A DNA stretch of 64,000 nt from Eledone cirrhosa (lineage: Eukaryota). The position numbers were made by a program, and so were the translations under genes. The stretch is from positions 46,314,001-46,378,000 of the forward strand of contig OZ024746.1 of assembly GCA_964016885.1 (NCBI GenBank). The letters run 5' to 3'. The notes under the pieces were generated by a model that was not told the origin of the DNA, ran no database searches, and worked only from the letters and a program-made list of their open reading frames with translations. Below, in pieces: positions 2,237 through 57,703 of the stretch (position 1 is the stretch's first letter; each line of letters begins with the position of its first letter).

Positions 2237-2339
2237 TATATATACATATATATATGCATATATATATATATATATATTCATATATACATATATATATGCA
2301 TATACATATAGGTCAAGTATGTAAACAATCATTCAAAAA

Positions 2340-2388
2340 TTGCTCCGAAGACTCCAAACCTTGGTTTGGAAGAAACAATTGTAAGCGA
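2340..2388 (+). ncRNA. Type I hammerhead ribozyme motif in a PLE end (core CCGAAGA, probably mutated)
   Basis: ttgct-CCGAAGA-ctccaaac/gtttggaa-GAAAC-aatt-GTA-agcga. Stem I is ttgct/agcga and stem III is the palindrome acaattgt. The same 3' half recurs at 52545-52570. Confidence 0.65.
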
Positions 2389-2467
2389 ATAAATGGTTTA
2401 AACAGAACTTTGATTCATGTAATTTCTATATATACATATATATACATTTATTAAAATAACAGATTAA

Positions 2468-2941: not shown

Positions 2942-3033
2942 TATATACATATATATATATGCATATATATATAGCGGCGATGAATTAGTTTTGCGAGGTT
3001 TTTTATATGAAATCGTGTGTCGAAACAGATATT

Positions 3034-3438
3034 GTTATATTTGGGGAGGGTCATATTTGCGTAATATTGCCAGAATTAATAACAGAACACACTCACTGTT
3101 TGGTTGGTTTTCGCTTCTCGCTGTCTTTTATATATATATATCTGCGATCTAACTTACTCGGTCCTCAATGTTGCCATTGACTGACCGGCGGTCAAAAATA
3201 ATACAGATGTAAACTGTAAATAATATTATGTAAACTATATATATATGTGTTTGTCTATATTGTATCTGTATTATTTTTGACCGCCGGTCAGTCAATGGCA
3301 GCATTGAGGACCGAGTAAGTTAGATCGCAGATATATATATATAAAAGACAGCGAGAAGCGAAAACCAACCAAACAGTGAGTGTGTTCTGTTATTAATTCT
3401 GGCAATATTACGCAAATATGACCCTCCACAAATATAAC
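3034..3438. repeat. Near-perfect inverted repeat (about 175-bp arms), probably a fold-back PLE end
   Basis: 3034-3208 is the reverse complement of 3264-3438. The terminal motif atgaccctcc..aa is shared with PLE ends at about 5870-5917 and 6490-6520. Confidence 0.85.
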
Positions 3439-3439
3439 C

Positions 3440-3472
<33 letters not shown>

Positions 3473-3615: not shown

Positions 3616-4120
3616 GAACGGAAAAAATGAAACGAAATTTCATTTCCCACTCTTAGTACGGCTGTTACTTAAATATAAGTATGTATACGTACATACATAT
3701 ATGTATACAGGCGTACAGAAGTATGCATATATATATACATACATGCACACATATATATATATATGTACGTATGGATTCACCAAACATTTATTATAATGCT
3801 CGGTGTGTTTGTAAACAAACATCCCGTATAAAGCCGTACAGTGTCTAGCAACCATCGTTGCTCATTTCTTCAACACTGACAAAGGAACGCTGTACTAGTT
3901 TCAAGCTTATTAGCTATCGTCAGCAACGTATACCTTCCTGTCAGATGATTGAACGTCTGAAAGTATATACTTTCCTTATGCATATTAACGGCTGAGCAGC
4001 CTAATTTGCATATCGAGTGATTTAATCGCCCGGGATACCGAAAACGATAAATGGAAAAATTGAAACGAAATTTCATTTCTCACTCTTTGTGCGGCTGTTA
4101 CTTATATATAAGTATGTATA
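3616..4120 (-). mobile_element. Non-coding HHR retrozyme-like element, copy 1 (about 433-bp unit with terminal redundancy)
   Basis: gaaacgaaatttcattt repeats at 3629 and 4062. The element is homologous to 7081-7460 and 28938-29840, carries the HHR at 3887-3929, and has TA flanks. Confidence 0.8.
3887..3929 (-). ncRNA. Type I minimal hammerhead ribozyme
   Basis: Minus strand reads acgttg-CTGACGA-t-agct aata agct-t-GAAAC-ta-GTA-cagcgt, with a 6-bp stem I and palindromic stem III (actagt). Confidence 0.8.
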
Positions 4121-4154
4121 TATATGCCGTTAATATGCATATATATATATACAT

Positions 4155-5400: not shown

Positions 5401-5850
5401 ATGTATGAATATATGTATGTGTATATGTGTGTATATATGTGTATGTGTGTGTAGGTGTACGCTCTTTATATATATATATATATGTGTATATGTATATGTG
5501 TATGCGTGCATTTATATATATGTGTATACATGTATGTGTGTGTAAGTATGCTTTTGTGTTTTTTTGTGTGTGTTTGCATGTGTAGTTTTATTTTATTTTT
5601 CCTTTCCTTCTCCCTTTTCCAGCCTCACTTTCATATAGATTGCATTTTTGTTTTTAGAATCCATATTCAATAAACAAACCAGGATTTTTCATTCTGAGGA
5701 TTGAAAGCAAAACCTTTTGCTTTTAAGAAACCACTGGTAAATGGAATAATTGCCTTATGTTGTTTATTACATAATAATAATAATTAAGCTCTGTTGCATA
5801 CATAGAGCACTCTTTTTTCCTGGACTTTTCCGATGGAATTACTTCACATA
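4291..5850 (+). mobile_element. PLE/retrozyme-like element: two direct HHR-bearing repeats about 1378 bp apart around a GT/AT microsatellite body
   Basis: aaaccagg..cattctga(a/g)gattgaa..gcttttaagaaacc..aatgga..aattgcctt occurs at about 4295-4380 and 5676-5757. Confidence 0.6.
5687..5746 (+). ncRNA. Type I hammerhead ribozyme (intact core)
   Basis: tttcatt-CTGAGGA-ttgaaagcaaa/tttgcttttaa (11-bp stem II)-GAAAC-cactg-GTA-aatggaa. A degenerate sister copy is at about 4309-4366. Confidence 0.8.
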
Positions 5851-6489: not shown

Positions 6490-7080
6490 TATTGTTATGC
6501 TTTGGGAGGGTCATGTTGCCAATAAGAAACACACGCACCAGTTGTTTCACTTCAATTTATTATAAATTAAATTTATAAATTTAGGAATTTATAAATTTCC
6601 GGTTGATTGGTTGGTTCTACAACCAGACGATTGTTCATATATTGTCAAAGTTCTTTCGTCACACATTCTGTGACCTCTTCAGTAATGTTATCTAGATACA
6701 TATGGCTTTAGCAACCTGCGCCCTACAAGATCAGCAAGAGGCAGACCACCTACCATTACCTCAATGCCCAAGAAAACCCAGATAGATGGATCGGCTAGAC
6801 CAGAGCCATACGGACCCCCGAAAACCACGATGAACTAAAGAAAATGATTGCACATGCAGTGGGGGCCCATATAAAATTAACCCTTAAGGAACATATGTTC
6901 AAATTTAATGGAAAACCCCAAGAGGAAGGAGCACCCATTGGTGTTAGCATTGCAGGTGACATAGCTAACCTATTCATGGTATGGTGGGACAATAGACTTA
7001 AACTTAAACTTAAAGAACAATTAGAAGACATCAACCTCTTAACCCTGATAATGTACTCACGCTACGTTGATGATATAAAC
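6490..7080. mobile_element. Penelope-like element fragment: inverted pseudo-LTR (minus, 6490-6695) plus RT fragment (plus, about 6700-7080)
   Basis: ORF 6844 onward has PLE RT motifs F.FNG..Q..GAPIG..IA..IANLFM and YSRYVDD. The minus-strand end carries an HHR core and an AATAAA. Confidence 0.85.
6644..6686 (-). ncRNA. Hammerhead core in PLE pseudo-LTR (stems I and III weak)
   Basis: Minus strand reads CTGAAGA-g-gtcaca gaatg tgtgac-GAAA, with a perfect 6-bp stem II. Confidence 0.55.
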
Positions 7081-7460
7081 AACGTTCAACTATCTGGCAG
7101 ATGGGTAAACGGTGCTGATGATAGCTAACAAGCTTGAAACTAGTACATCGTTCCTGTGTCAGTGTTGAACAAAAAGGTTACGTGGTTGCCTTAACACCGT
7201 ATGGCATAAATTCAGGCTGTTCGATTTGTTGACAAACAAACGAAAAAAGCAGGCGTTATAATAAACGTCGGCTAAACTGATGCGTGCATATATGTATGTG
7301 TACCTGTATGCATATGTGTATATATATGTATATATATATATATATATATGCATGCTACTGTACGTCTGTATACATATATGTATGTACGTATACATACATA
7401 CTTACATTTAAGTAAGTGCCATACTAAGAGTGAGAAATGAAATTTCGTTTTCATTTTTTT
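7081..7460 (+). mobile_element. HHR retrozyme-like element, copy 2 (5'-truncated, fused to Penelope RT)
   Basis: From aacgttcaac onward it is colinear with the unit starting at 29537. Confidence 0.8.
7109..7151 (+). ncRNA. Type I minimal hammerhead ribozyme
   Basis: acggtg-CTGATGA-t-agct aaca agct-t-GAAAC-ta-GTA-catcgt. Confidence 0.82.
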
Positions 7461-9871: not shown

Positions 9872-9906
9872 ATATATATACATAAATATACGTATATATA
9901 TATACA

Positions 9907-10055
9907 TAGGAAAAAGTATGACCCCAATAGCCGTTGAAACGGCTTGAGCTCTGCTGTCGGGTCATACTTTTTTCTATTTCCCAATCTAGTACCCTAAGTA
10001 TTGAGTACTCTGGTGCATTATGGTCCATCTGGTTCCTTACCACAATTCCTTTGTT
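9907..10055 (+). mobile_element. Fold-back PLE end carrying the 3' half of a hammerhead plus a conserved tail
   Basis: Short inverted arm taggaaaaagtatgaccc, then GAAAC-ggc ttgagctct gct-GTC. The tail ctaagtattga.tactctggtgc.ttatggt is shared with the copies at 35050-35325 and 41811-42010. Confidence 0.65.
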
Positions 10056-16959: not shown

Positions 16960-17437
16960 TATATGTATATAATACAAGGACAATTTGTTAAACCTTCATT
17001 ACGTTTATTGATTGGCGATGTGCGTTTCACTTATTAATCAACTCAAGGTTCCATCTGTATCGATTTGGCCTGACTCTGGAATCAAAAGCTCATCAGACCT
17101 CTGCTGTTGTAATGACAGAATGAACATATAAGGCATATATGCCTTATATGTTCATTCTGTATTATTATATTACACTCTATCTAGCTCTACACTTCGCCAC
17201 TGACGTGAACTTAAACATCGAGTGCTCACCTGGGTAAACCTACAGTAACTTCACGTTACACTCCCTGGATATATATATATACAAGTGGAAGCTTAGTAAA
17301 ATCGAAGCTTTGGCTGTGGGCAAGCAAAGTCGACCTACAATATGAGTTAGCAAAGCACTCAATAAGGGTAGGTCCTTATAGTAATAACATACTTTTAAAT
17401 AGCTTGACAAATTGAACATTGTTGTAGGCAAAATCTG

Positions 17438-20500: not shown

Positions 20501-22323
20501 GGAAATATATTCTTCCAAACAATTCTTTACTGTGATCTTCTACAATTATATTTGCAAAGAAATGCAAAAGTCATTATAAGATGAGCAGCATTCATAATTT
20601 ACTTATTAAATTTCAGAATTCTATTTCAAATATTCACAGTAGAAAGCTTATAAACAGTTTCTCAAACAGTTTCTCTTTTAAGAGAGAGAGATATCTCAAA
20701 TAACAAGTATTAGAATGAAATATTCAATAAGATTGAGATAATTTAAAGAGGTTTAAAACTAATTATATCCATTTGTTATTCCTGACTACATCATTTAAGG
20801 CATATTACCTTTCACTTCCTGTTTTCTAATAATATCCTTTAGGGGGAACTTCTATTGCTCCAAAATCAAATATTTCTATCAAATAATGTGAGATATTATA
20901 AACTCTAATTTGAGATTTAAAAAAACGAAACCGAACAGAACAACAGGTCCAATGGTAATCATTTAAAACATATATTTATTGCTTGTCACACAGCATTCAA
21001 ATGATGGCCTTCTTAAATCGAAACTCACAATCAATTTGTCCTTGTTCTTTACTAAGTGAGCATACTAACTCCAAGAATGTATAATGGGAACATTAATGAA
21101 TGTCATTGAATATTAACCTGTAAATGCTCCAACAACACATCACAACACCAATAGGGGATTTTGTGTAATATAAATAAGAACAGATGCCAATAGTCTGACA
21201 ATATATCTCTCATTATGATGGTTCTCTATAAATATAAGTTTACAATAATTTGTTAGCCATTACATTCATGAACCTTCAAATTACACTTGATTTTCATATT
21301 TTTGTTTCAAATTAATGACTTACACAAGTGACATGCATGGTTGTGTTATCAAGATCACCTCTCAGCCATGTAGTTTGAGTTTAATTATCCTGTGTGCAGC
21401 AATTGTTTTCTACCATTGCCTTGGGTTGTCCTATACACTGAAAGTGAAATGATACATGGATGTTGGGTGACAAACTATAGGTATGTGGGCCAGTTGATGT
21501 TTTTTGGAGTTTGCTTTCTTTAGTGTTTCATATCTATAATAGTTTTCGTTTGTGCTCTTCGTGCATGCAGCTCATATGTGTTTTGTAAAGTTATCTATGA
21601 ATTCAAGATGTTCAAATCAACAGCTTGTTAGTCACTCATTTTTCTCTGTGAGTAATAAACATAATTCTAATCAAACATTTACTATCAAGATAGTCTTTAA
21701 TATGGTATAGTAGAAACTTCACATAATATATCACTTCTGAACTGATTATAGGTATATTATCTCTCTTGCAAAATGAAATAGTTTCTTTCTTTTCAAAATC
21801 AGCAAGACATCAAATGATTGCAGTATATCTAGAAACATATTAATATTACAAGAAGTTCTGTATATAAGTAACAATTGGGCTTCATGTCCTATGTTTATTG
21901 CTAGGCAATAATATTTATATCAAAAGGGTAAAATGAGAATGATATAATTAAATAAAAGAGAAACATAAAATCTTTGCTTTAAATTTTGCACTCAACCATT
22001 CTGGAATTTTTCAAACTACTTGCAACAAAATAGTCTGTAATTCCAAATGTTACTAAAGATAGAAATAAGTACAAGTGACATTTGATACTTTCAGAATAAA
22101 ATTGCTGTTTTTATCAAAATTTTATGTATTTACCATTTATAAGTTTAATCAAGATTTTATATAACATAATTTAATATTTCATTAGTGCATACAATAGTAA
22201 TCGATTAAATAAATAAATGTGGTTCTATCAAAATGTGTATAACTTTAAGAATCTCCATTTCAGTGTAATCATTGTTATGCTAAGAATGGTATGGCTGTGC
22301 GATTTTGCTCTGCAGTACCTTAA

Positions 22324-22544
22324 CCCTTTTGCATTTAAACCGGCCATATCTAGTCATAATTCTCCCACCTCTTTCTGTTCAAACTGGCTGTAACCGGCCA
22401 TTCAAACTGATGTTAAAGTATTGTTCTTGAAATAAATAATATCAAAATCTCATAGATTTGATATTATGTGAGATAGTTATATGAGGTAAAGTCTTTACCA
22501 TGAAAATATAATAGTATATATAGATTAATGTAAATGCTAAAAGG
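22324..22544 (-). mobile_element. piggyBac-type MITE
   Basis: TTAA-cccttttgcattta..taaatgctaaaagg-TTAT, the reverse-orientation copy of 24755-24975. Confidence 0.7.
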
Positions 22545-22904
22545 TTATGTAAAATTATTCTACTATATCCTGAAATTGACCAATACCTTATGAGAGTAAT
22601 TTGATAGTAACTGTGTGAATGTCCATTGGCATAAAAAAAGTGCATTTTGTTAAAAACTGCCTGTAGAGGTCGTACGTAACCCATACTAGCATGGAAAAAC
22701 AGACATAAGCCAATGATGACACAAATGATGATGATGTTGGTGTGTTTCATTGATATATATCAGGGAGGGATGTAAACATTTGCAAGAAAATCAAAATACT
22801 GGGGACAATCTCTTGTGCCCCAAAATACACTATGAAAGATGCAGTAAACTAGTAATTGGCTCTTTGGAAACCTGTAACCAATGAAACTATTGTCTACAAA
22901 TTCA

Positions 22905-23400
22905 TCATTATCATCATCGCTGTTTCATGTCTATTTTCCATGCTTGCATGGGTTAGACAACTTGCCATATTATGAGACAAGTCAGGTCAGGTGACCATGT
23001 TTTGCTCACATGAAATTTTCTGGCTTGGTTTCTATGGCTGGATGCCCTTCCTAAGACCAAAAATATTAGTGTGGACAGGGTGCCTTTTCTTTGAGGTGGT
23101 AGCATGACCATAAACAATGTTGCCAGTGCATTTTGGTCTTGTCACAAGCATGACCCTCTCACAGGCTGAATTGGATGCTTTTTGCTGGGTCACTAGCACT
23201 ACCACCATTACAGGGTGGGGTGGGTGATTTTTGTTGTCATCAGCTCAACCACTTTACAGGTTGATCTAAGTGCTTTTTGTCATGGTGACATGACTGTGTG
23301 GAGCATGTCCAGCTTTCTATGTTTGTGTGCATGTGTTGGACTGGGAATGTGGGAGGTTGGAAGAGGAGTGAAAGGAGTATGCAGGCTGGGGATGGGTTAG
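22905..23400 (-). mobile_element. Old RTE 3'UTR-like element
   Basis: Contains ccatgcttgcatgggttagac and ggctggatgcccttcctaa, the reverse complement of the RTE tail motifs. Confidence 0.6.
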
Positions 23401-24754
23401 TATTAAGATGTAGGAAGGTGTATGGGCAGTGGTGGGGATGGAAAATTAGTGTAAACTAGTATCCTCTAGATGTTTGTTTCATTCTGTTCACATGGGAAGG
23501 CAAGTTTTCTGTAGTACAACACATTGTCTGGTCTTGGTCTTGTAAATCACCTTCAGCAGATTATCACTCAAGAGCTTCGACAGTTCCTTTATATTTTAAG
23601 TCTCTATTTGTTCTTCCTTACTGTCAAAAGCATCAAGAAGATGCCTCTAAATTTGTTACCGGCTGAGGGCTCCCTGAACTTCTATATCTTTCTCCACCAG
23701 GTTGCCTTCTGTATCTGAGTTCATCTAGCCCAAACTTTAAAGTCACTAACTACTAGGTTATGTTGGGAGGTACATTTCTAACTAACAAGGGTCTTTGTAT
23801 TTACAACCATCTCTCTATATCATCTTCTAGCGAGGTAAAAAATGTATAAGTTTTTGCTAAATACAATGATAATGAATTGATTTCAAATCACAACAGCAAT
23901 TATAAAATTTCATATTTGAATAAAACATTCAAATCTATAATGTAAAATAAGTACTGATCTGATTAATTTTGATGTGACCTAACCCTAGGTCAACCAACAT
24001 TGACCAGGCCTACGATTAGAGGGGTTCAAGTAATGACTGTCCTGTCATTTTAAAACTTCCTATTCTTATATTAATTAATGTGACAATTCCATGTTTAGAT
24101 ATATTTTGATATATTTTTAGCTTGTCAAATGGCAGCAGATAGGATCTCCCTGGCTGAAGAGTTTCCCTGTTGATTCATTTTTAATCTATTTTATTTTTTT
24201 ACAGATATCATTAACTTTGAGACAAAATTGTTTTGAAAATAATCAATCATTCTATTCGTGTGTTGATGAAATACATACACAAGGGACCTAAACTCCTGGC
24301 ACTAATGAGGTTATTTGTGCTGCAAATACTTCCATGAGCTTTTTTGAATTTGTATTGACTGAGTGAGAAGCATAGTGCTTGTTTAATTGTGTTGTAGTAA
24401 AGTTTTGGCATATTGTATATGTATCTTCGTGTGAAGAATTGATTGAATATGTAGCAGCAGCAAAAGTAGTAGTAGTGGTATTAGTAGTAGTAGTTGTTGT
24501 AGGAGGAGGTGTTGTTAGGAGTGCCATTATACAGTGATGTGTGGTTGTGTTAATGTACAACCAATAATAATGCAAAGTGTGTTATTTTGTGTCTTTTGTT
24601 TTAATAACTGATCCGTATAAATATATCCTGATCAAATGCATTCCAGTTGTGACCATACCATCTTTTGTTCACCTAGAACTATATTATCTAAACATTTTAA
24701 TCATTTATTGGTCTTAGTCATTCGACTGTAGCTATGTATATGTCCTACCTTTAA

Positions 24755-24975
24755 CCCTTTAGCATTTACATTACTCTATATTTATTATTGTATTTTCACG
24801 GTAAAGACTTTATTTCACATAATTATCTCGCACAATATCGAATCTATGAGATTTTGATATGATTTATTTTGAGAACAATACCTTAACATAAGAATGAGCA
24901 GCTGGTTACAGCCGGTTTGAACATAAATAGGTGAGGGGATTCTGGCTGGATATGGGCGGTTTAAATACTAAAGGG
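24755..24975 (+). mobile_element. piggyBac-type MITE
   Basis: TTAA TSDs at 24751 and 24976, with 14-bp TIRs ccctttagcattta / taaatactaaaggg. Confidence 0.8.
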
Positions 24976-26081
24976 TTAAGGGTATAGCTTATTAAAATGT
25001 CAATCATTCCCAATGCTTCTTAAGTCAACCGCTTTATTTACTAAATGTTTTGTATGATGCTCTACTATTTATGAACCCACTCCTATGTGTGTTTTTATTT
25101 TAAATGACAGTAGTTTTTTTGTTTTTTTTTTAGAGAATTCTGACTGTTACTTGTTGGCTCATATCTTTTTAAGAATATGAAAAGTAGAGAGAATAGGAGA
25201 GATCACAGACTTTCTCTTATGCTAATCTGTTTTGGATATGCTGTATTGTTGCTGTATTTGAAGAAGTATTCTTTAAAGATATTCAGTGTTCTAGAATTAG
25301 CAATCAAATATACCTCAGGCTAATCTTTACCATGTTATAAATGGAAAAAAAAATATACATTGAAAATTCTGATTCTAAAAGCAAAGATGAAATAGTCACA
25401 CCTGGTATACTGATCAAATCAAATAAAAGAAATGATTGTTGCTGTTGCTAATGATGTTGATAATGTCAAGGATGATGATGATAAGAAGTTACAAATGTTT
25501 GATATCAATGCCAATGCTTGCTTCAGTGTATCTGAGAAGTAATTGCTGCCACTATTAATTCACACTTATTTCTTTTGTTGTATGAAAGGTATTCCGATAG
25601 AAAATAACGTGCTTTAACAAATATGAAAATGTAGGATAATCACCTCTCTTTTTGTGCTCATGGTAAATAGGGGCATAAAAAAATAAGCACAGGAAAATCT
25701 GCAAAAAATGCAACTAAAGATGTGTCAAATGTTGAAACGTAGGTGAAAATCCCCAATTCATGAACTGGGGTAAGACCACAAACCTAAACATCAATATATG
25801 TTTCAAATAATCATATAGATTTAAGCATTGCTTAACTGTGCCGCTTACACACCCTCACATAGAAAAATATAAATATAAAGTAGTTTTTAAATTAACTACA
25901 ATTGGAAGTTTATAATCCAACGTATTTGAATTAATTTTATTCTCAATTTCATCCAACAGTCTTAATAATCACTTCTTGCTATTTTTACCATAGAAATGTA
26001 TTACTTGAAGCTCTTACAAAGTTAGATGAACTTTCCTTTAATAATTGACATTCCTTTAAGCAACAACCCACTTTGAATTTA

Positions 26082-28874: not shown

Positions 28875-28935
<61 letters not shown>

Positions 28936-28939
<4 letters not shown>

Positions 28940-29052
28940 GGAATAGAATAGAATGAAACGAAATTTCATTTCTCACTCTTAGTACGGCACTTACCTAAAT
29001 GTAAGTATGTATGTATACGTACATACATATATGTATACAAACGTACAGTAGC

Positions 29053-29089
<37 letters not shown>

Positions 29090-29267
29090 CACACATATAT
29101 ATATGTACGTATCAGTTTAGCGAACATTTATTATAATGTTCGCTTTGTTCGTTTGTAAACAAACGGACAGCCTGGTTTTTGCCGTATGGTGTTAAGGCAA
29201 CCACGTCACCTTTTTGTTCAACACTGACACTGATACGTACATATATATATGTGTGCCTGTATGTATG

Positions 29268-29326
<59 letters not shown>

Positions 29327-29840
29327 GCTACTGTACGTCTGTATACATATATGTATGTACGTATACATACATACTTACATTTAAGTAAGTGCCGTACTAA
29401 GAGTGAGAAATGAAATTTCATTTCATTCTATTCTATTCCATTTATCGTTTTCGGTGCGCCTGGCCGACTGAACTCACTCGATATGCAAATTAGGCTGCTC
29501 AGCCGTTAATTTTCATAAGGAAAGTATATACTTTCGAACGTTCAACCATCTGGCAGAAGGTTATACGGTGCTGACGATAGCTAACAAGCTTGAAACTAGT
29601 ACATCGTTCCTGTGTCAGTGTTGAACTAAAAGGTGACGTGGTTGCCTTAACACCGTACGGCATAAATCAGGCTGTCCGTTTGTTTACAAACGAACAAAGC
29701 GAACATTATAATAAATGTTCGCTAAACTGATACGTACATATATATATGTGTGCCTGTATCTATATATATATATATATATATATATACATGCTACTGTACG
29801 TCTGTATACATATATGTATGTACGTATACATACATACTTA
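28936..29840 (+). mobile_element. HHR retrozyme-like element, copy 3: inverted partial copy (28936-29230) plus about 1.2 tandem units (29231-29840)
   Basis: tgatacgtacat recurs at 29231 and 29728 (period 497 including variable TA). The left part is the reverse complement of the unit. Confidence 0.85.
29565..29607 (+). ncRNA. Type I minimal hammerhead ribozyme
   Basis: acggtg-CTGACGA-t-agct aaca agct-t-GAAAC-ta-GTA-catcgt. Confidence 0.82.
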
Positions 29841-32930: not shown

Positions 32931-33865
32931 TGTGTGTGTGTGTATTGTGATATTGATTGAAAGTATAATGGATTATTGTTTAGTTTCAGTTCAACAGTGT
33001 AAACTGGGTGATAAGCTGGATTAAGTGTAAATATCTTATTTTGATTGGTTGGATTTTATGGAAGGTGTGACATGAATTTATCAACCTAGTTTTGATATCA
33101 AGTTTAAATCATTTCAGAGTTTGTTTCGAGTTTATTCTATTTCAAATTTTTGTTGTGCATTTTATTTTAAATTTTCTATTTGCTGTTTTTTTTCTTTTTT
33201 TATATGTATATTTGTCAGAGTGAAACTCCTATGTGGCTGAAGCTAAACTATTATGTGTACAAGTGATAATCTAGTGATAGGATGTCTGTATACATATGGA
33301 GAAACATTTCAGTAATTCTTTTTTTAGTGTGCTCTTTGTGTGTGTTGCGCTATGTTAACTAGAAAAGAATATATTTCTATCTAATTCCTGGTAGTCTACT
33401 CATGCTAACATTATTTCCTCAAGTTTTAGAGTCAGCTAGTTTACAGCCAGAAATAACATGAAACAGAACATCAAAAATAGCTACAACAAGTCTTGAACTC
33501 ATGATTTTATAGAGAAATCAGCAATGCATAAATAGTTCACTTCTAAGAAATAGCAATGAATTTACATCTGAATTTTACTACAATAACAAAAAACTCAAAT
33601 GAAATTCATATGAACAAGATGAGCAGTAAAATTCATATAAGTAATTTCATTTAAACTTAAAAATTCCTTACAGGAACATCATTATTATCATTGTATTTTG
33701 AATAAAGGCATTCATAATGTTGTTCATCTAGTAAAATCTATGCAAGATTTGCAATTGGCAAATATAAAAAAAAATTGCTGCATCCTCAAATACATATATT
33801 CAAATGCACAAACACACACACACACACACACATACACTCATACATATGCTTATATATATGTATAT

Positions 33866-34054
33866 AATAGAATTAGAATTTAGCTTTGAGCATAGCTGTA
33901 TACAGATATGTATTATAATTTTGTATTTCTAAAAAAATATGGTATGTTTATAAATAAACATTTAGAAAGCCAGAGCTATGCAAAAACTTTAGCAGCTATC
34001 ACCAATACATTCTGTATACAGCTATGCTCGAAGCTAAATCCTAATTTTATTCTA
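33866..34054. repeat. Inverted-repeat element with arms of about 40 bp (MITE-like)
   Basis: aattagaatttagctttgagcatagctgtatacaga versus tctgtatacagctatgctcgaagctaaatcctaatt. Confidence 0.6.
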
Positions 34055-34079
34055 TTATAAGTTAAGTCAATTTATACAG

Positions 34080-34740: not shown

Positions 34741-35049
34741 ATTATATTCATTACATCGGTTTTATCAAAAACTATCAGAATCCTCTGTTCAATCAATTTC
34801 ATTAGCTAGAAGTTAATTTTATATAATAAATTGATGAAAACAGTGAAATTGAGGAGATAAGTCGTGATAAAAACTAATAAGCTAAGTTCCTTGTATATGT
34901 TTATGTAGACACAGGGAAAATATAGAGAAAAATGCACACAAAGAGTATAGCTCACATATTACAGATTATAATATTATTATCATAATATTATTTAATTATT
35001 TATCATTAATATAGTTGTATGCATGTATGCATGTATGTATGTATATGTT

Positions 35050-35325
35050 GGGTCACTCTTGAATGCTACTGGTAACATGTAACCCAGTACAACCTGTCAC
35101 CTGATCAGGTCGTCGGTGACTAAACCGGCAACCCCACCAAGTGGTAAGGAACCAGATGGACCATAACGCACCAGAGTATTCAATACTTAGTGTAGTAGAG
35201 TGGGTAATAGGAAAATGTTTGAACCCGACGGCAGAGCTCAAGCCATTTTGCCGGCTATTTCTGGACTCCAGAAATAGCCGGCGAAACGGCTTGAGCTCTG
35301 CCATCGGGGTCAAACATTTTCCTAT
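35050..35325 (-). mobile_element. Fold-back PLE end: 119-bp near-perfect hairpin (35207-35325) plus tail
   Basis: The arms contain the HHR 3' half GAAAC-ggc..gcc-(G/A)TC. The tail is shared with the copies at 9907 and 41811. Confidence 0.7.
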
Positions 35326-37000
35326 ATATATATATATATATATATATATGGGGTTTGTACAGTTTCCTTCTTTCATTTTCACCCATGATACATTAGTTAG
35401 CCCAAGGTTACAGTAGAAGAAACTTGCCCATGGTTTCATGAAGTGAAGTAGATCCCAAGACCACACAACCAGGCCTATGCTCATTTTAAATACCAATATT
35501 ACTAATGATGGATAAAAATAAAGAATAAAAGAAAAACTTTCTTCATCGATTGGGTATAACAAAAATTATATTTATGTAATTTATATATCCAATTTAACTA
35601 GCTTGAAAGTATATCAGTTGCAAATAAATGGTTTCCTCTTGGGTGTTTGGATCTAAATAAGTCTAAGACCTGATAAGATTACTTTCATTTTGGGCATCTA
35701 ATACATTGTAAAAGATACCTCGATGGGGAGTTCATAACTATTCTCTTGATACCTACATGATTAGTAATTAGCTAGCTGATCAGATAGTTAATACTATATA
35801 ACAGGTAACAACATGCAAATATAGTTTCTTTCTTTGATATGTTTAGATTAATATTATCTCCTTTAATACTTTTATACTCTTGAGTTCCAATTTCAATTCA
35901 GTTCTGTCATTTTGATTAAAAATTAAAGCAAATTACTATGTATAAACATACAAAGCAGAGAATTAAACATTTATAGTCTTCAATCCAAAATAATGGGCAA
36001 ATTTGCAACTGGGCATTAAGGAACTCTTGTGGTTATTATAACTAAAACAACAACTACTACTTCTATTGTTGCTGCTACTACTACTACAAATAATAAAAAT
36101 GATAATTGCTGATTTAGGCAATGGGGGGGGGGGTCGATTAAATCGACCCCAGTCTATTACTGATACTTTATTTTGCCAGCCCCACAAGGATGAAAGTTAA
36201 AGCAAAGTACTTATTTTCCTTACGGTCAAAATTTCATAGTTCATAAACCAGAGCAAAGAAACCGATCTAAGCAATGGTTTATTGATTACCAATGCAAGGA
36301 AAATATGTACTTCTTCCTAAATATTATATGCTTTATATATATGTCAAAATAGTATGTATTTCTCTTATGATATATGGCTCTTTCTATATTTTTTTTTTTT
36401 ACTACCACATGTAATTTCATTAATATATGTCTGTGTATGTCAACCACGTAAATATATATATTAAGCTTTTCCTTAGACTCTGTTTGATATTTGATATTAA
36501 CGTTGTTATATCATATCATTTTTATGTAATCGTATTATAGATTTTAATATATGTTATTTGAAGTACTGTTCTGTTATATTTTGTAATATTTTGTGATATT
36601 TTAGTTAAGTTTATGCCAATGTAAAATGACTTGACCTCTGTGTATTTGTTGCAATGGTATAGATATTTTTTCAACACAATTTTTTCAACACAATTTAGTT
36701 CTATATGATTTTTTTTCTTACCCTGTGTAAAACTTTATACTATTTGTTAACCTTGAATTATATATATGATGGAATTTTGTATATCTTTTGATGCCAATAT
36801 ATTATAATATTGTTATTATAATGTTATTATAATGTTTTTATATTGTTTATGCACACTGACAGGGAATTATATATTATATTTTATTTTTATTTTTATCTTT
36901 ATTCTTATTTTTATCTTTACTATATTATACTGTAAACAATATATATATATATATTTAAATACTTAATAAGTGTTAGTTTGTGTTTGTACTAATGTATATA

Positions 37001-37034
<34 letters not shown>

Positions 37035-37037
<3 letters not shown>

Positions 37038-40000
37038 ATGGATGGACTACGGAATTCTGGAGAGTTGAAGAGAGAAAAATGTGGACGCTCAGCGACAATG
37101 CCAAAGATAAAGACAAATTCACCTCGTGGACGAGAATGCAAGCACTCCGCCTTGTTTCGGCCCAGGATGGCTAACATAACCCCATCCCCCCCCCCCGTGC
37201 CCCACCGCTCCCACCTTCCAAACGCAATCCAAAACTTCAGAGTTGGTACCATGAATGTAGGCACCTTAAAGGGTCGCTCTAACGAGGTTGTAGAAATGCT
37301 TGAACGTAAGGAGGTCGATGTTTGTTGTATTCAAGAGACCACGTGGAGGGGAGGGTCGGCTAGATTCATCGTGGGTAAAGAACGATGCTATAAGCTTTTC
37401 TGGGTGGGAAATGACAATGGGTTGGGTGGGGTAGGAATCATGGTAGCAGAAAAGTGGGCAGATAAGATAATAGACGTAAATAGAGTGAACGACAGAATAA
37501 TTAAAATAAGACTTGTCCTCAATAAAACTACGGTGACAGTAATATCTGCGTACGCACCACAATCCGGACTGCCCGGTGCTATAAAAGACAGATTCTACGA
37601 GACACTGATGCTCGCTACCTCCCAAATAACCGACAGTGACTATATAATTATTGCAGGCGACCTAAATGGTCACGTTGGACAACATTGTGACGGCTATGAC
37701 GGAATCCATGGAGGCTATGGGTTCGGTACTAGAAATGAGGAAGGCTCCAGAATCCTGGAATTCTGCGATGCAAATAACTTAACTATCTGTAACACTAACT
37801 TCAAAAAACGAGACAATCACTGGATCACCTATAGATCGGGGGAACACACAAGCCAGGTAGATTATATCCTTACCAGAAGACGTGACAGAGTGTCTGTTGT
37901 TAACACTAAATCCCTCCCCCATAAAGAATTCACCTCCCAACATAGACTGATAATTAGCGACCTCATAGTCAGGACGAGACGTACTAGACAGCGGAAGACG
38001 ACTATCCTCAGGAGAAAAATATGGAAGCTAAAGGACCCCATAGCCAGAAATAAATTTCAAAGCATATTACTTGACGCTTTCGACAGTAAGGAAGAGCAAT
38101 TAGAGTCGTATAATATAGAGGAACAGTGGGAATTCCTGAGAGCAAACCTGCTGACGGCGGCAGACGAAGTCTGTGGCTGGAGCAGGCCTGTAGGTAGGAG
38201 GAGAGTAACATGGTGGTGGAACAGTAAGGTGGAGGAGTCAGTTAAGGCCAAAAAGCAGGCTTGGAAAGCATGGCGGGATGGGGGAAGTAGAGAAGACTAT
38301 CAAGTGGCCAGGGGGGAAGCTAGGAGACAAGTGTACTTCGCAAGAAGGGAAGCAGAGGAAAGAAAGTTCAAGCATGTTCTACAACGTGAGGACCAAAAAC
38401 GTGAGGTGTTCAGGATTGCCAGGCAATGTGTCAAGGAAAACCGTGATATTGTCGGGGAGAAGTGTGTACTTAACGATGATGGCATACTTGCCATCACCGA
38501 CGCTGATAAGAAGGTAGCTAGGAAGTGTCACTATGAAAGGCTTCTAAATGAGGAGAACAAATGGGAGAAAGACAGTCTCCCCCACATCGACCCAATAGAG
38601 GGACCAGCAGTGTTAGTCCAGGGTAGTACAATAAGCAAGGCAATCAAAGATATGAAGACGGGTAAGGCGGCTGGTCCTTCGGAAATAGTTGCTGAGATGC
38701 TGAAGGCATCTGGTTCGGTGGGACACACCATGGTCACCCGGATAGTTAACCAAGTCGTACAGAATGGGGTTGTTCCGAAGGACTGGCGTAGCAGCATCAT
38801 CGTTAACTGCTATAAGGGAAAAGGAGATGCCCTAGATAGGAGTAACTATAGAGGCATTAAATTAATCGACCAGGTCATGAAGGTCACGGAAAAAGTAATA
38901 GCGCAACTAATCAGAGAGAGAATTGATCTAGATGAAATGCAGTTCGGATTTGTGTCAGGCAAAAGTACCACAGACGCTCTTTTCATTGTACGACAACTAC
39001 AGGAGAAGTACCTAACTAAAAGTAAACCCCTATACTTAGCTTTCATCGACTTGGAGAAAGCCTTCGACAGAGTCTCCCGTTCCATTATCTGGTGGTCTCT
39101 TAGAAAACTAGGTGTTGACGAATGGCTTGTGAGAGCTATACAAGCCATGTATAAAGAAACAGTCAGTAAGGTTAGAATTAACAACGAATATAGTGAAGAG
39201 TTTAGCGTAAAAGTTGGTGTCCATCAGGGCTCTGTTCTTAGCCCCCTAATATTTATTATTGCCCTTCAGGCTATAACAGTGGAGTTCAAGACCGGCTGCC
39301 CATGGGAACTCCTATACGCAGATGATCTAACGCTCATAGCTGAATCAATGACCGAACTAGAGAAGAAATTCCAAACATGGAAGCACGGCCTAGAATCAAA
39401 AAGCCTTAAAATTAACCTGGCTAAGACTAAAGTTCTAGTTTGTAGGAAAGAAAATAAGGCGGCAGTCCCATCTGGGAAATGGCCATGCTCAGTGTGTAGG
39501 AAAGGCGTAGGTAGAAACTCCATTTTATGTCCCAAATGCAAAGTATGGGTGCATAAAAGATGTAGTGGGATCACAAGATGTAGTGGGATCACAGGTAAGC
39601 TAACTAAGAACATAGATTTTACATGTGGCCGGTGCTCTGGTGCAATAAGTAGCAGCAAGTGCCCACAAATACTAGCTCCTTCAACTGCGCAGAGGGTTCT
39701 ATAGAAATAGTGGACAGCTTCTGTTACCTGGGTGACAAAATCAGCAGTGGGGGAGGGTGCTCTGAAAGTACAGTAGCTAGAGTCAGAACAGGATGGAAAA
39801 AGTTCAGAGAGCTTATACCACTATTAGCCGCTAGAGGTTTCTCCCTAAAAATGAAAGGCAGGTTATACGATGCCTGCATACGAACAGCAATGCTGCATGG
39901 CAGTGAGACCTGGGCATTGTGTGCAGAGGATATACGCAGACTAGAGAAGAACGAAGCTTGCATGCTCCGCTGGATGGGCAATAGTAATATACGTGAACGG

Positions 40001-40288
40001 CAAAGCATAAACGAACTAAGGAAAAAATTAGAAATAAGAGGGATCAGATGTAGTTTACTCGAGAGAAGGCTACGTTGGTACGGTCACGTGATGCGCATGA
40101 AAGACGACAGCTGTATAACAAAGTGCAGGGCAATAAAGATAGACGGTAGCCACGGAGTAGGCAGACCCAGAAAAACATGGGACGAGCTGATAAATTCCGA
40201 CCTCACACGCTTACACCTCTCCAAGACAATGTCACTGGACCGAGACCTTTGGCGGTACTCAGTAATAGAGAAGACCCGCCTTACCTAA
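37035..40288 (+). pseudogene. RTE ORF2 polyprotein (APE endonuclease, reverse transcriptase, PHD-like finger) split by one frameshift near 39667
   Basis: EN motifs GTMNVGTL, IQET, SAYAP, AGDLN and SQVDYI. RT motifs FIDLEKAFD, GVHQGS.LSP, LYADD and FCYLG. The sister copy at 10561 (cccagagaatact) shows 1 bp missing here (cccacaaatact). In-frame 18-bp duplication RCSGIT. Confidence 0.93.
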
Positions 40289-40796
40289 ATACAAAGTAAA
40301 AACCTACTACAGTCAGTAGGCATCTCTATCAAAACACCCCCCGGTCCCACCACCTCCACCCCATCCACACCGCCCCTTTCAATGTAAAGTTATGTTGGTC
40401 CCACAACATCCAGGCCGAAACAAATGAGATCGTGTAGGTGTCACGACAAAAAAACACACAGTCCACGCTGTAAATGTGGCCGTGTAGGCAACACGGTAAA
40501 AACCTCCCAGCCCCACACTGTAAATGTGGTTGGTGTTAGGAAGGGCATCCAGCTGTAGAAAACCCGCCAGACAGTCCACGCTGTAATGTGGCCGTGTAGG
40601 CAACACGGTAAAAACCTCCCAGCCCCACACTGTAAATGTGGTTGGTGTTAGGAAGGGCATCCAACTGTAGAAAACCCGCCAGACAGTCCTATGCGAGCAA
40701 GACAACCACTCTTGCCTCAAGTGGGAAAACCCCCGTCCAAACCCATGCAAGCGTGGAACACGGACGCTAAACCTGATGATGATGATGATGATGATG

Positions 40797-40797
<1 letters not shown>
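37035..40797 (+). mobile_element. Near-full-length RTE-clade LINE
   Basis: Single long ORF2 (EN and RT), C-rich 3'UTR with a tandem duplication of about 116 bp (40456-40688), (GAT)n tail, TA repeats on both sides. Confidence 0.96.
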
Positions 40798-40829
<32 letters not shown>

Positions 40830-41793: not shown

Positions 41794-41810
41794 ATATATA
41801 TATATACTAT

Positions 41811-42010
41811 GATAAAAGTCAGGACCCGACTGCTGAGCTCTGGCCATTTCGACAGCTAGATCCAAACACGTTTGAATCTAGCTGTCAAAACGGCTGGAGC
41901 TCAGCCGTTGGGATCCTGACTCTTATCCTATTACCCACTCTACTAGCCTAAGTATTGAATACTCTGGTGCATTATGGTTCACCTGCTATATTACCACACC
42001 CTCTTTGTTG
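41811..42010 (+). mobile_element. Fold-back PLE end (hairpin 41811-41927 plus tail)
   Basis: Same architecture and tail as the copies at 9907 and 35050. Confidence 0.65.
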
Positions 42011-42101
42011 TTATATATATATATTTGTAGTAAGGTTGCTTGCATGCATCCATAGGTGGTATGCTGGTTGAGCACTCTATGCCCCTTCAGAGCAGAGTAT
42101 G

Positions 42102-42420
42102 ATAATATGGAAAATGAAGAACCGGTGATGCATCGAAACACAATTTATTAATGTATTACAATTGTTTCTCCGGCGAACAGCTCGAGGTACGATCTATTTG
42201 TGGATCAAACCTGACTCTGAATTTGCAAGTTCCTCAGATATGTCTAGCGACTTCAAAGATTTGCTCCGAAGTTGCTAGCCGTATCTGAGGAACTTGAGAA
42301 TCCAGAGTCAGGTTCGATCCACAAATAGATCGTGCCTCGAGCTATTTACCGGAGAAACAATTGTAATATGTTAATAAATTGTGTTTCGATGCATCACTGA
42401 GTCTTCGTTTTCCATATTAT
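42102..42420. mobile_element. Inverted pair of PLE ends (arms of about 153 bp), each with a hammerhead
   Basis: 42102-42254 is the reverse complement of 42268-42420. Confidence 0.8.
42280..42370 (+). ncRNA. Type I hammerhead with extended domain II (about 60 nt)
   Basis: cgtat-CTGAGGA-..-GAAAC-aatt-GTA-atatg. The mirror copy is on the minus strand at about 42152-42243. Confidence 0.55.
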
Positions 42421-52512: not shown

Positions 52513-52524
52513 TATATATATATA

Positions 52525-52690
52525 TAGAAATTACATGAATCAAAGTTTGGAGGAAACAATTGTAAGCAAATAAATGATTTAAACTGAACTTTGATTCATG
52601 TAATTTCTATATAACTGCTCTGTAAAACAACTGATGTTATTACATTGAGCTATTTATTTTACTGGTAATAAGATGGTAATGAATTACTGT
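52525..52690 (+). mobile_element. Fold-back PLE end with hammerhead 3' half plus tail
   Basis: 23-bp inverted arm tagaaattacatgaatcaaagtt, then tggagGAAACaattGTAagcaa. Same family as 2340-2428. Confidence 0.7.
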
Positions 52691-55929: not shown

Positions 55930-57252
55930 CTAAGGCGGGTAAAATTCCCGAGATCCATGGACGAGTTCTCTCCAGCGGTCTCTGTCCCTCATTATCGCTG
56001 CCATATCCTGCATCTCCAACAGACCAGTGTCTGTCCTTAGGGCATCAACATATGTTAACCTTGGTCTTCCTCTTCTAGTGTGTCCATGTAGGGGCTCCCA
56101 AAGGAGCACTGAGTGCAATGTCAACTCTGGATGTCGGTGAGCATGTCCAGCCAATCTCAGTCTCCTCTGTGTCACTTTTGAGCTGACTTTTGGGATGCTC
56201 CCATACAGCTCCGAGTTTTTCATCCTCAGTGTATACTGATTAATGTTCAGAGCCATCCTCAGCATTCTCGTGTAGCACCCATCCACCATCTGAGTGAGTC
56301 TCTTGGTCAGTGTCCAAGTCTCAGACCCATACAGCAGCACAGACTCCACTACAGCAATGAAGAGGCGGATTTTCAGGTCTCTACGAAGGTCCGACTTCCA
56401 CACCGATCTCAAGCTGTGACACGCCGCCCAGGCCTTGCTCTTCCTCTCAACCACATCATCTTCCGTATTCCCAATCTTTGCTGCCAAATACAGGAAGTCC
56501 TCAACCAATTCCAGCGGGTTCCCGCCTACATTAGTGATCCCCTCTGGCTTCTCAACATTCTCTACCAGATATTTTGTTTTAGTCTCATTCATTCTCAGCC
56601 CTACACTCATCGACACAGTCTCAACCTCCCGCATCAAATCCTCTGCCTCCTTCAATGTATTTGTCACCAAAACTATGTCGTCGGAAAATTCAGCATCCGA
56701 TACCTTTTTCGCCCCAACTCTCCTGCTCTGAGCCAGTGCCACAGTAAAGCCAGAGTCCTGGTGTTTCTCCAGTGCAAGGCGCATACAATAGTCCACTACG
56801 ATGATAAAAAGGTAGGGAGCCAATGTATCTCCCTGGAGCACTCCAGCCAGTATCTCAAAGAACTCTGTCATCCCATCAGGTGTAATGACTTGGGCTTTGG
56901 TGTTGGTGTAGAGCAGTGATATCAGGTCCACTATCCTCTTGGGGATTCCATAAGCCTGTAAGATCTTCATCAGGCAGTAACGGTCCACAGAATCAAAGGC
57001 CTTCCTAAAGTCAATGAAAACCATGACCGCAGGAAGGCACTTTGCTCTAGCTCCCTCTAATATCCTCCTCAGCATCAGGATGTGACTGGTGGTTGATCTA
57101 CCCTCTCTGAAGCCGTTCTGGTTGTCCCTGAGCTTCTTCTCCATCTCAGGCCGGATCCTGTTAAGAATCATCCTGTTGAGGGTCTTTGCCACAAGTGACG
57201 TCAGTGAGATCCCCCGGTAGTTGTTGGTGTTAGAGAGATCTCCCTTCTTTGG

Positions 57253-57255
<3 letters not shown>
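55930..57255 (-). mobile_element. 5'-truncated RTE-type LINE (second family) with open RT frame of about 440 aa
   Basis: [44 protein letters not shown] (sister copy FADD), LYGSETW and RGRP. TA repeats on both sides. Confidence 0.93.
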
Positions 57256-57325
<70 letters not shown>

Positions 57326-57422
57326 TATATATATATATATATATGCATATATATATATATACATATATATATAGATAGTTAGATAAATGTAGACGGGTGT
57401 GTATGATTGTGTATAGAAGATT

Positions 57423-57657
57423 ATATTAATATGAGGAATTCCAACTTTGTCTGATTTACTCATTTTATTTACAATCCTTTAAAATTTATAATGGTATCAT
57501 AATGAAATAGTATGATAGAATATTAAATTATAAGTGTTAATTAACACTTAGAATTTAATATTCTATCATACTATTTCATTATAATACCATTATAAATGTT
57601 AAAGGATTGTAAATAAAACGATTAATCAGACAAAGTTGGAATTCTTCTTATTAATAT
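57423..57657. repeat. Spacerless imperfect palindrome of about 235 bp
   Basis: Centre aagtgttaa|ttaacactt at 57540/57541, with reverse-complement arms. Confidence 0.85.
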
Positions 57658-57703
57658 ATATATATATATATATGCATATATATATATATGCATATATATA
57701 TGC

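Follow-up and report, generated by a model that had tools for sequence, protein, structure and literature searches.

Inverted ends of likely Penelope-like elements in Eledone cirrhosa: a probable family-specific stop zone above a hammerhead-like half motif, and no general stem II rule

When a retroelement inserts head-to-head with an inverted piece of itself, where does the strand switch fall, and does a ribozyme carried by the element place it there? The question is raised by a stretch of 64,000 nucleotides of Eledone cirrhosa (contig OZ024746.1 of assembly GCA_964016885.1, positions 46,314,001 to 46,378,000, hereafter the window), in which four fold-backs at 9907, 35207, 41811 and 52525 had been described as keeping the 3' half of a hammerhead ribozyme and lacking its CTGANGA core. 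The earlier note held that the inversion breakpoints of Penelope-like elements (PLEs) fall repeatedly inside hammerhead stem II, and that the ribozyme hairpin itself promotes stalling or snap-back of the reverse transcriptase (RT). Fold-back insertions and hammerheads in PLEs have already been described, as far as the available text of two reports goes (PMC4209133; bioRxiv 10.64898/2026.07.22.740005); the point at issue here is the position of the switch. The window has 33% G+C, is rich in (TA)n and contains RTE-like LINEs as well as numerous short repeats. Nearly complete LINEs of this type, which encode an endonuclease and an RT domain and end in (GAT)n, lie among 36993-40800, 320-2230 and 55930-57378; a 903-codon open stretch with a weak PHD-like match occupies 36993-39704, and a second RT family is found at 55930.

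All four fold-backs proved to be real, and inverted arms could be aligned in each. The arms of the 9907 fold-back (9906-9924 and 9959-9977) are identical at 18 of 19 positions, those of the 35207 fold-back (35207-35265 and 35267-35325) at 55 of 59, those of the 41811 fold-back (41808-41867 and 41870-41930, each about 60 nt long) in 51 of 61 columns, and those of the 52525 fold-back (52521-52547 and 52587-52613) at 27 of 27. An exact-motif search inside each confirmed that CTGANGA is missing 5' of GAAAC in all four, and the single match with one mismatch among them, in the inverted arm of 41811, arose by chance. The strand switch, placed earlier at 5-20 nt above GAAAC, reads 5-19 nt above it in every case: 10 nt in 9907, where the forward arm begins, 15-18 nt in 35207, 17-19 nt in 41811 and 5-8 nt in 52525, whose junction has a 3-nt microhomology. 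Two families are indeed present, but the examples are not four independent cases: 9907, 35207 and 41811 are 79-87% identical, fall into two subfamilies and make up one family (family A), and the count is therefore two families, the other (family B) consisting of 52525 and a fuller copy at 2340. The GAAAC..GTH half is intact in 9907 and 52525 but not in 35207 and 41811, where every arm is mutated in one half of the motif; the cut triplet of the 35207 fold-back is ATC in the arm with 35283..35305 and GTC in the other arm. In 9907 and 52525 one arm only ends near GAAAC, and the partner end lies 3' of the predicted cut site. The coordinates of all the features discussed are collected in Table 1.

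Table 1 Fold-backs, hammerhead-like motifs and associated features in the window
Feature	Coordinates	Strand	Remarks
Family A tail of the longer arm, one-sided	35141..35206	-	counterparts at 9978-10043 and in the 41811 tail
Tail-bearing arm of the 35207 fold-back	35207..35267	-	5' end 17-18 nt above the GAAAC position, within the probable family stop zone
Inverted partner arm of 35207, without tail	35267..35325	+	outer end at fixed site 1 beside (TA)n
Hammerhead-like 3' half, 35207 fold-back	35283..35305	+	GAAAC, 5-bp stem III and cut triplet, by sequence
Family A copy	9906..10055	+	19-20 nt inverted arm, 78-nt tail, (TA)n on both sides
Family A subfamily copy	41808..42012	+	almost perfect fold-back whose centre is 17-19 nt above the GAAAC position
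Family B fold-back	52521..52613	+	forward arm starts in the stem II 3' strand; 27-nt partner arm
Family B fuller copy	2337..2431	+	complete minimal type I hammerhead layout, core CCGAAGA (U4C-type)
Counter-example, family C	28934..29833	+	junction 29230; complete hammerhead retained at 29571-29601
Counter-example, family C	3621..4141	-	16-nt inverted arm; retained hammerhead 3923-3893
Counter-example, family D	42102..42420	+	core and GAAAC retained on both arms, 62-nt spacer between core and GAAAC
Counter-example, family D-like	16990..17160	-	24-nt perfect palindrome; CTGATGA retained; 61-nt spacer to GAAAC
Penelope-like reverse transcriptase fragment	6689..7086	+	adjoins family C hammerhead 7115-7145

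Family A was followed beyond the window by aligning the contigs of four runs to 35120-35300 at 80% likeness. Two runs from one sample gave 11,551 and 10,799 family A contigs, figures that should not be read as copy numbers; in the two runs from other organisms no contig aligned, which does not prove that the family is absent there. Scanning for family A by pattern returned no locus in metagenome contigs and none in viral contigs; a lone bacterial match was judged to be chance. Loose ends running into (AT)n pile up at the end of the tail (35141, and on into the family end) in 302 and 234 contigs, and at 35207 in 214 and 187. Family A has two fixed outer ends beside (TA)n, 78 nt apart as measured in the 9907 copy, and carries a one-sided tail between these two fixed start points; the two window copies of family B end at one point, and no tail was seen in them. 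The tail of the 35207 copy stops about 12 nt before the family end and abuts the unrelated 35040-35140, a GC-richer sequence of 100 nt that is present as a single copy in the window. The insertion flanks are (TA)n microsatellite, and (TA)n or AT-rich targets are indicated both by the flanks of the window copies and by the consensus of the (AT)n loose ends. An inverted 5'-truncated copy lying head-to-head with the main copy was found in the window copies and in the contig joints alike. The short arm of 9907 was considered as a natural long stem I and rejected, as it starts at the outer point common to the other inverted arms.

Upstream of the 35207 centre, family A continues as AT-rich sequence in 87 and 93 contigs, with 40 on the other arm. 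The consensus of this upstream sequence has an agreement of about 0.46, and its first 15 letters are identical in three rows. Because family A continues differently there, the palindrome centre of 35207, which lacks the upstream loop, is a true junction, and its reading as a natural 17-bp stem II was rejected.

The joints of family A are not uniform on one side. The junction data come from one sample; they comprise 15 of 50 joints, those with the best support, and likewise the best 12 of 55 letter rows. One arm starts at 35267-35277 in 14 of these 15 best joints (of 50), and at 35267 itself in nine. This position is the edge of the sense arm of the reference, so the letters between the arms matter; they are readable for 6 of the 11 joints at 35267, within the best 12 of 55 letter rows. 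All six distinct readable joints hold at most two family letters above 35267 and end 16-19 nt above GAAAC, the zone in which the 35207 window copy also ends, and a further six joints, with 35242 and 35243 taken as one, are placed 1-15 nt above GAAAC. One arm end thus clusters 16-19 nt above GAAAC, but the partner ends are scattered, running from 35167 to 35243 (77 nt) with none above GAAAC in the 18 distinct joints among those listed; copies centred like 35207 align straight through and hence were not counted as joints. Rough nulls give p 0.002 for all six ends falling at 16-19 nt when 16-26 nt are visible, p 0.005 for six of twelve when 1-26 nt are visible, and p 0.002-0.005 for the clustered end in a simulation of geometric truncation; the rough nulls are post hoc and assume an unbiased display of joints, and short contigs favour ends close to the 35267 reference edge. 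Read by eye, the joints mostly have 0-3 nt of microhomology, and 5 nt in one row. The 41811 subfamily, whose sequence at the switch zone differs from the rest of family A, shows 111 and 100 loose ends at 35215 in the contigs. Taken together, the family-specific stop zone is probably real. On the partner side, the inverted arm of 9907 and one contig joint end no more than 1 nt from the predicted cut site, an excess that is not significant (p 0.15); the end of the 9906-9925 arm there is what a putative self-cleaved RNA template would be expected to leave.

Whether the zone lies inside stem II depends on the status of the hammerhead motif in each family. For 52525 the assignment to stem II stands in its geometry, the relative at 2345-2383 showing the junction where the 3' strand of stem II begins, but the core of that relative reads CCGAAGA. 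The motif of this one copy has a stem I of 6 and a stem II of 8 pairs and a palindromic loop III. A U4C core is a natural, weaker hammerhead variant (PMC3088659, available text). Rfam searches returned no hammerhead match for family B and none for family A, and a weak Hammerhead_HH9 match for family C (17.6 bits, E 0.056, far under the gathering score of 52); the whole-window Rfam search gave microsatellite-type matches only among the matches listed (150 of 299). A strict hammerhead search of the window found 5694 only and a relaxed one found five full motifs; 41130 and 42285 were read by eye.

In family A, GAAA, stem III and an NUH cut triplet are intact at 9936-9958, and stem III is retained in both subfamilies with no compensatory change. 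The strict 3' half occurs nine times in the window, against a mean of 3.5 and a maximum of 6 in 30 shuffles (about 0.06 per kb), which makes a chance origin of the family A motif unlikely but does not by itself imply a ribozyme. A family consensus without CTGANGA had been named in advance as speaking against a hammerhead, and this is partly what was found: CTGANGA is absent from the 30 upstream consensus letters of family A (contigs, one sample), which reach about 47 nt above GAAAC and are steady to about 33. Core-to-GAAAC spacers elsewhere in the window measure 14-26 nt, or 61-62 nt in family D. Family A may therefore be either a long-spacer form, a decayed form or not a hammerhead, and since neither its 5' strand nor a core was found, "inside stem II" cannot be stated for this family. 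Its upstream consensus (at 35267) shares a 10-letter word, followed by ATTCT, with 5677-5700 before the core of family E. The likeness could be chance; if it reflected homology, the family A core would have decayed at 19-25 nt above GAAAC, and the stop zone would lie at the boundary of core and stem II. The hammerhead-like motifs of family D (42285-42365 and, on the minus strand, 17096-17024) are about 70% alike and have an unusually long stem II domain. The fold-back centre of this family at 42255-42273 nearly matches the family B stem I strand and CCGAAG region at 2333-2350, and GAAAC-AATT-GTA is common to families B and D; the U4C-type core may be a lineage trait, and family D may carry a second, newer core downstream.

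A census of the whole window shows how far the pattern reaches. Outside microsatellites it counts 11 fold-back inserts with a median arm length of 125 nt, leaving out two terminal-inverted-repeat pairs set aside as MITE-like (elements of this kind lie at 22318-22547 and 24752-24981, and at 22677-22955). Four of the 11 fit the claimed rule and seven do not, four of them in the hammerhead-bearing families C and D and three without a hammerhead motif. The last three lie beside (TA)n (3029-3443, 33862-34055 and 57422-57658), and the one at 57422 is a near-perfect palindrome with no loop. In family C, the arms at the 29230 junction end about 11 nt and about 125 nt 3' of the cut site, and both arm ends of the 3977-4141 fold-back lie upstream of the retained hammerhead; in family D, the joint at 42254-42268 falls 17-30 nt upstream of CTGAGGA, and in the D-like copy the 17137 joint falls about 40 nt upstream of CTGATGA. 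Family C is also a hammerhead-bearing unit of about 500 nt, in partial tandem and inverted arrangement and retrozyme-like (28934-29833, 7081-7459 and 3621-4141). Four of the eight fold-backs in families with a motif or half-motif, namely all four of families C and D, thus switch outside stem II. As these two families switch elsewhere, the stem II pattern fits at most two of the four motif-bearing families and is not a general rule.

The elements are likely the ends of Penelope-like retroelements. Our preferred reading, which we hold tentatively and at a little under an even chance, is that the fold-backs are head-to-head shortened Penelope-like ends made by two separately primed cDNAs, and that family A arms end 16-19 nt above GAAAC through RT stalling at a hairpin. 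Both target strands would be nicked and primed at the two start points, by analogy with an anole element in vitro; both cDNAs would stop early, and 0-3 nt of microhomology would accompany the joining of their ends. One cDNA of family A would often stop 3-6 nt after entering a predicted hairpin, GGATTAAA / 7-nt loop / TTTAGTCC, where the reverse transcriptase would stall. This candidate, drawn by eye from the low-agreement (0.46) consensus, has 8 bp with one G-U pair and a 3' strand 14-21 nt above GAAAC, and on this model a long stem II domain may include it. In family B, too, the 52525 arm ends inside the 3' strand of a stem, 5-8 nt in, and RT pausing and switching at RNA hairpins are described for retroviruses (PMC3187697 and PMC5737391, available text). 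The 41811 subfamily switches at an equal distance in a different sequence, which fits a distance-defined or an end-defined stop equally well. On this reading the catalytic core is lost as a side effect of truncation.

The same two-cDNA insertion could owe its cluster to a fixed 5' end of the template RNA, at which the enzyme runs off and does not stall; such an end might come from transcription starting there, from a cut during RNA processing or from a short master copy that ends at this point. Run-off explains the sharp cluster, with one or two family letters above 35267 in six of six readable joints, almost as well as stalling. It accounts better than stalling for the 41811 subfamily, which keeps the distance despite its different sequence, and the absence of CTGANGA from the upstream consensus letters agrees with it. 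Shared upstream sequence nevertheless passes the point in part of the contigs (about 0.3 of loose ends, a crude estimate), so that some templates extend further, and we regard run-off as a minor though appreciable possibility. The snap-back of the earlier note, in which the stem II hairpin self-primes the cDNA and a one-sided deletion of the palindrome centre, at the same time or afterwards, scatters the partner ends, would suit the start of 52525 in stem II, the near-perfect palindromes of 35207 and 41811, and the contigs (three records) that cross the palindrome centre. The joint of 35243 to 35282 also reads as a fold-back, at a natural 5-bp hairpin that spans GAAA and is not stem II, and self-priming has been proposed for Penelope palindromic junctions (PMC3846280, in whose available text hammerheads are not mentioned). 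Yet four of the eight motif-family fold-backs switch outside stem II and three more have no motif, a retained loop occurs in none of the best 12 of 55 letter rows, and no partner end lies above GAAAC in the 18 distinct joints listed (35207-like centres aligning through). The upstream loop is missing from 35207, and stem II is undefined for family A. With partner arms ending anywhere along the 77 nt, snap-back at stem II is not the usual route, and as an account of these joints it is unlikely.

The cluster might also be no real hotspot and instead reflect heavy truncation, a selective choice of the four examples and an artefact of contig edges and ranking. The motif lies 40-125 nt from the start points, so that heavily truncated copies end nearby, as the 125-nt median arm length in the window would allow; only 4 of 11 fold-backs fit, three of them from one family, and the reference edge coincides with the cluster in data that hold the best 15 of 50 joints only. 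Geometric truncation, however, would end an arm 5-20 nt above GAAAC in 0.10-0.13 of inserts, which gives about 0.002 (post hoc) for three out of three, and none of the six readable joints falls at 20-26 nt, where it would have been visible; we consider an artefact improbable, on a par with snap-back. A fold-back master that was re-amplified would make the family A junctions inherited and not independent, and the great abundance of the family in the two runs and the contigs that cross the same centre are in keeping with this. At least 11 different partner ends occur among the joints with the clustered end, however, and the three family A copies in the window have three different centres, which leaves inheritance very improbable.

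The anatomy of these insertions is shared with several known systems, to the extent that the available texts describe them. Insertions of endonuclease-bearing PLEs comprise an inverted truncated copy and a one-sided tail (Craig et al. 2021, PMC8557442), and the window elements resemble them in heavy 5' truncation, in the inverted 5'-truncated copy beside the 5' end, in the tail at one end, in the bias to (TA)n targets and in the hammerheads of the end repeats. Unlike those PLEs, family A has a tail of 78 nt as against 30-40 nt, and families A and B are without a linked ORF; no preferred junction position is reported in the available text. The Poseidon element PAc of Anolis carolinensis nicks both strands in vitro and has two RT start sites (Frangieh et al. 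2024, PMC11167929). Family A resembles it in the two internal start sites bounding a tail and in its AT-rich targets, and the family A model may be compared with the nicking and extension of both strands on PAc, where uncleaved RNA is the main template. The PAc ORF begins at stem II, unlike family A, in which no such ORF was found, and the available text of that study maps where copying starts, not 5' stops or inversion junctions.

Inverted pLTRs, palindromes at the inverted junction and microhomology at the 5' junction are likewise features of Penelope in Adineta vaga, for which self-priming was proposed (Arkhipova et al. 2013, PMC3846280); here, in contrast, many partner ends lie far from the end of the other arm, and the available text makes no link to a hammerhead stem. 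Families B and C resemble the minimal type I hammerheads of metazoan PLEs in their short palindromic helix III, a helix II of 4-8 bp and one additional base following the core (Cervera and De la Pena 2014, PMC4209133). The window families depart from the hammerheads described in the available text of that work: helix III of family A is 5 bp long and no core lies inside the usual distance, family B has U4C and family D has a spacer of 61-62 nt.

At the protein level, a family C hammerhead is adjoined by a Penelope-like RT fragment at 6689-7086. This fragment is 63% identical to an Octopus vulgaris RT-domain protein and matches Pfam RVT_1 weakly, and its relatives end in a region that looks GIY-YIG-like by eye and has no Pfam match. 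No RT/GIY-YIG ORF linked to families A or B was found. The open sense frame of family A was considered as the start of a Penelope ORF and rejected: longer proteins yielded no homologue of it, which is weak evidence, Pfam gave no match, and the contig consensus places a stop codon just upstream in that frame.

A literature search that covered few subscription papers and no supplements found nothing on the position of PLE junctions relative to the ribozyme. The insertion type is known, the stem II rule is not general and the family A stop zone is a modest lead; as fold-back anatomy has already been described, the value of the result is that of a lead, not a discovery. We think it doubtful that some Penelope-like families carry, in their folded hammerhead domain, a built-in RT stop that fixes both the cDNA end and the inversion joint and so yields core-less copies. 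If this were true, the stop 16-19 nt above GAAAC in family A would record, as a fossil footprint, the effect of RNA structure on cDNA synthesis by Penelope, the genome would fill with core-less, ribozyme-dead copies, and a direct in vitro test of how inverted ends form would be at hand. Mapping could separate twin priming, self-priming and run-off at an RNA end in a family whose fossil insertions number in the thousands and whose stop site is sharp.
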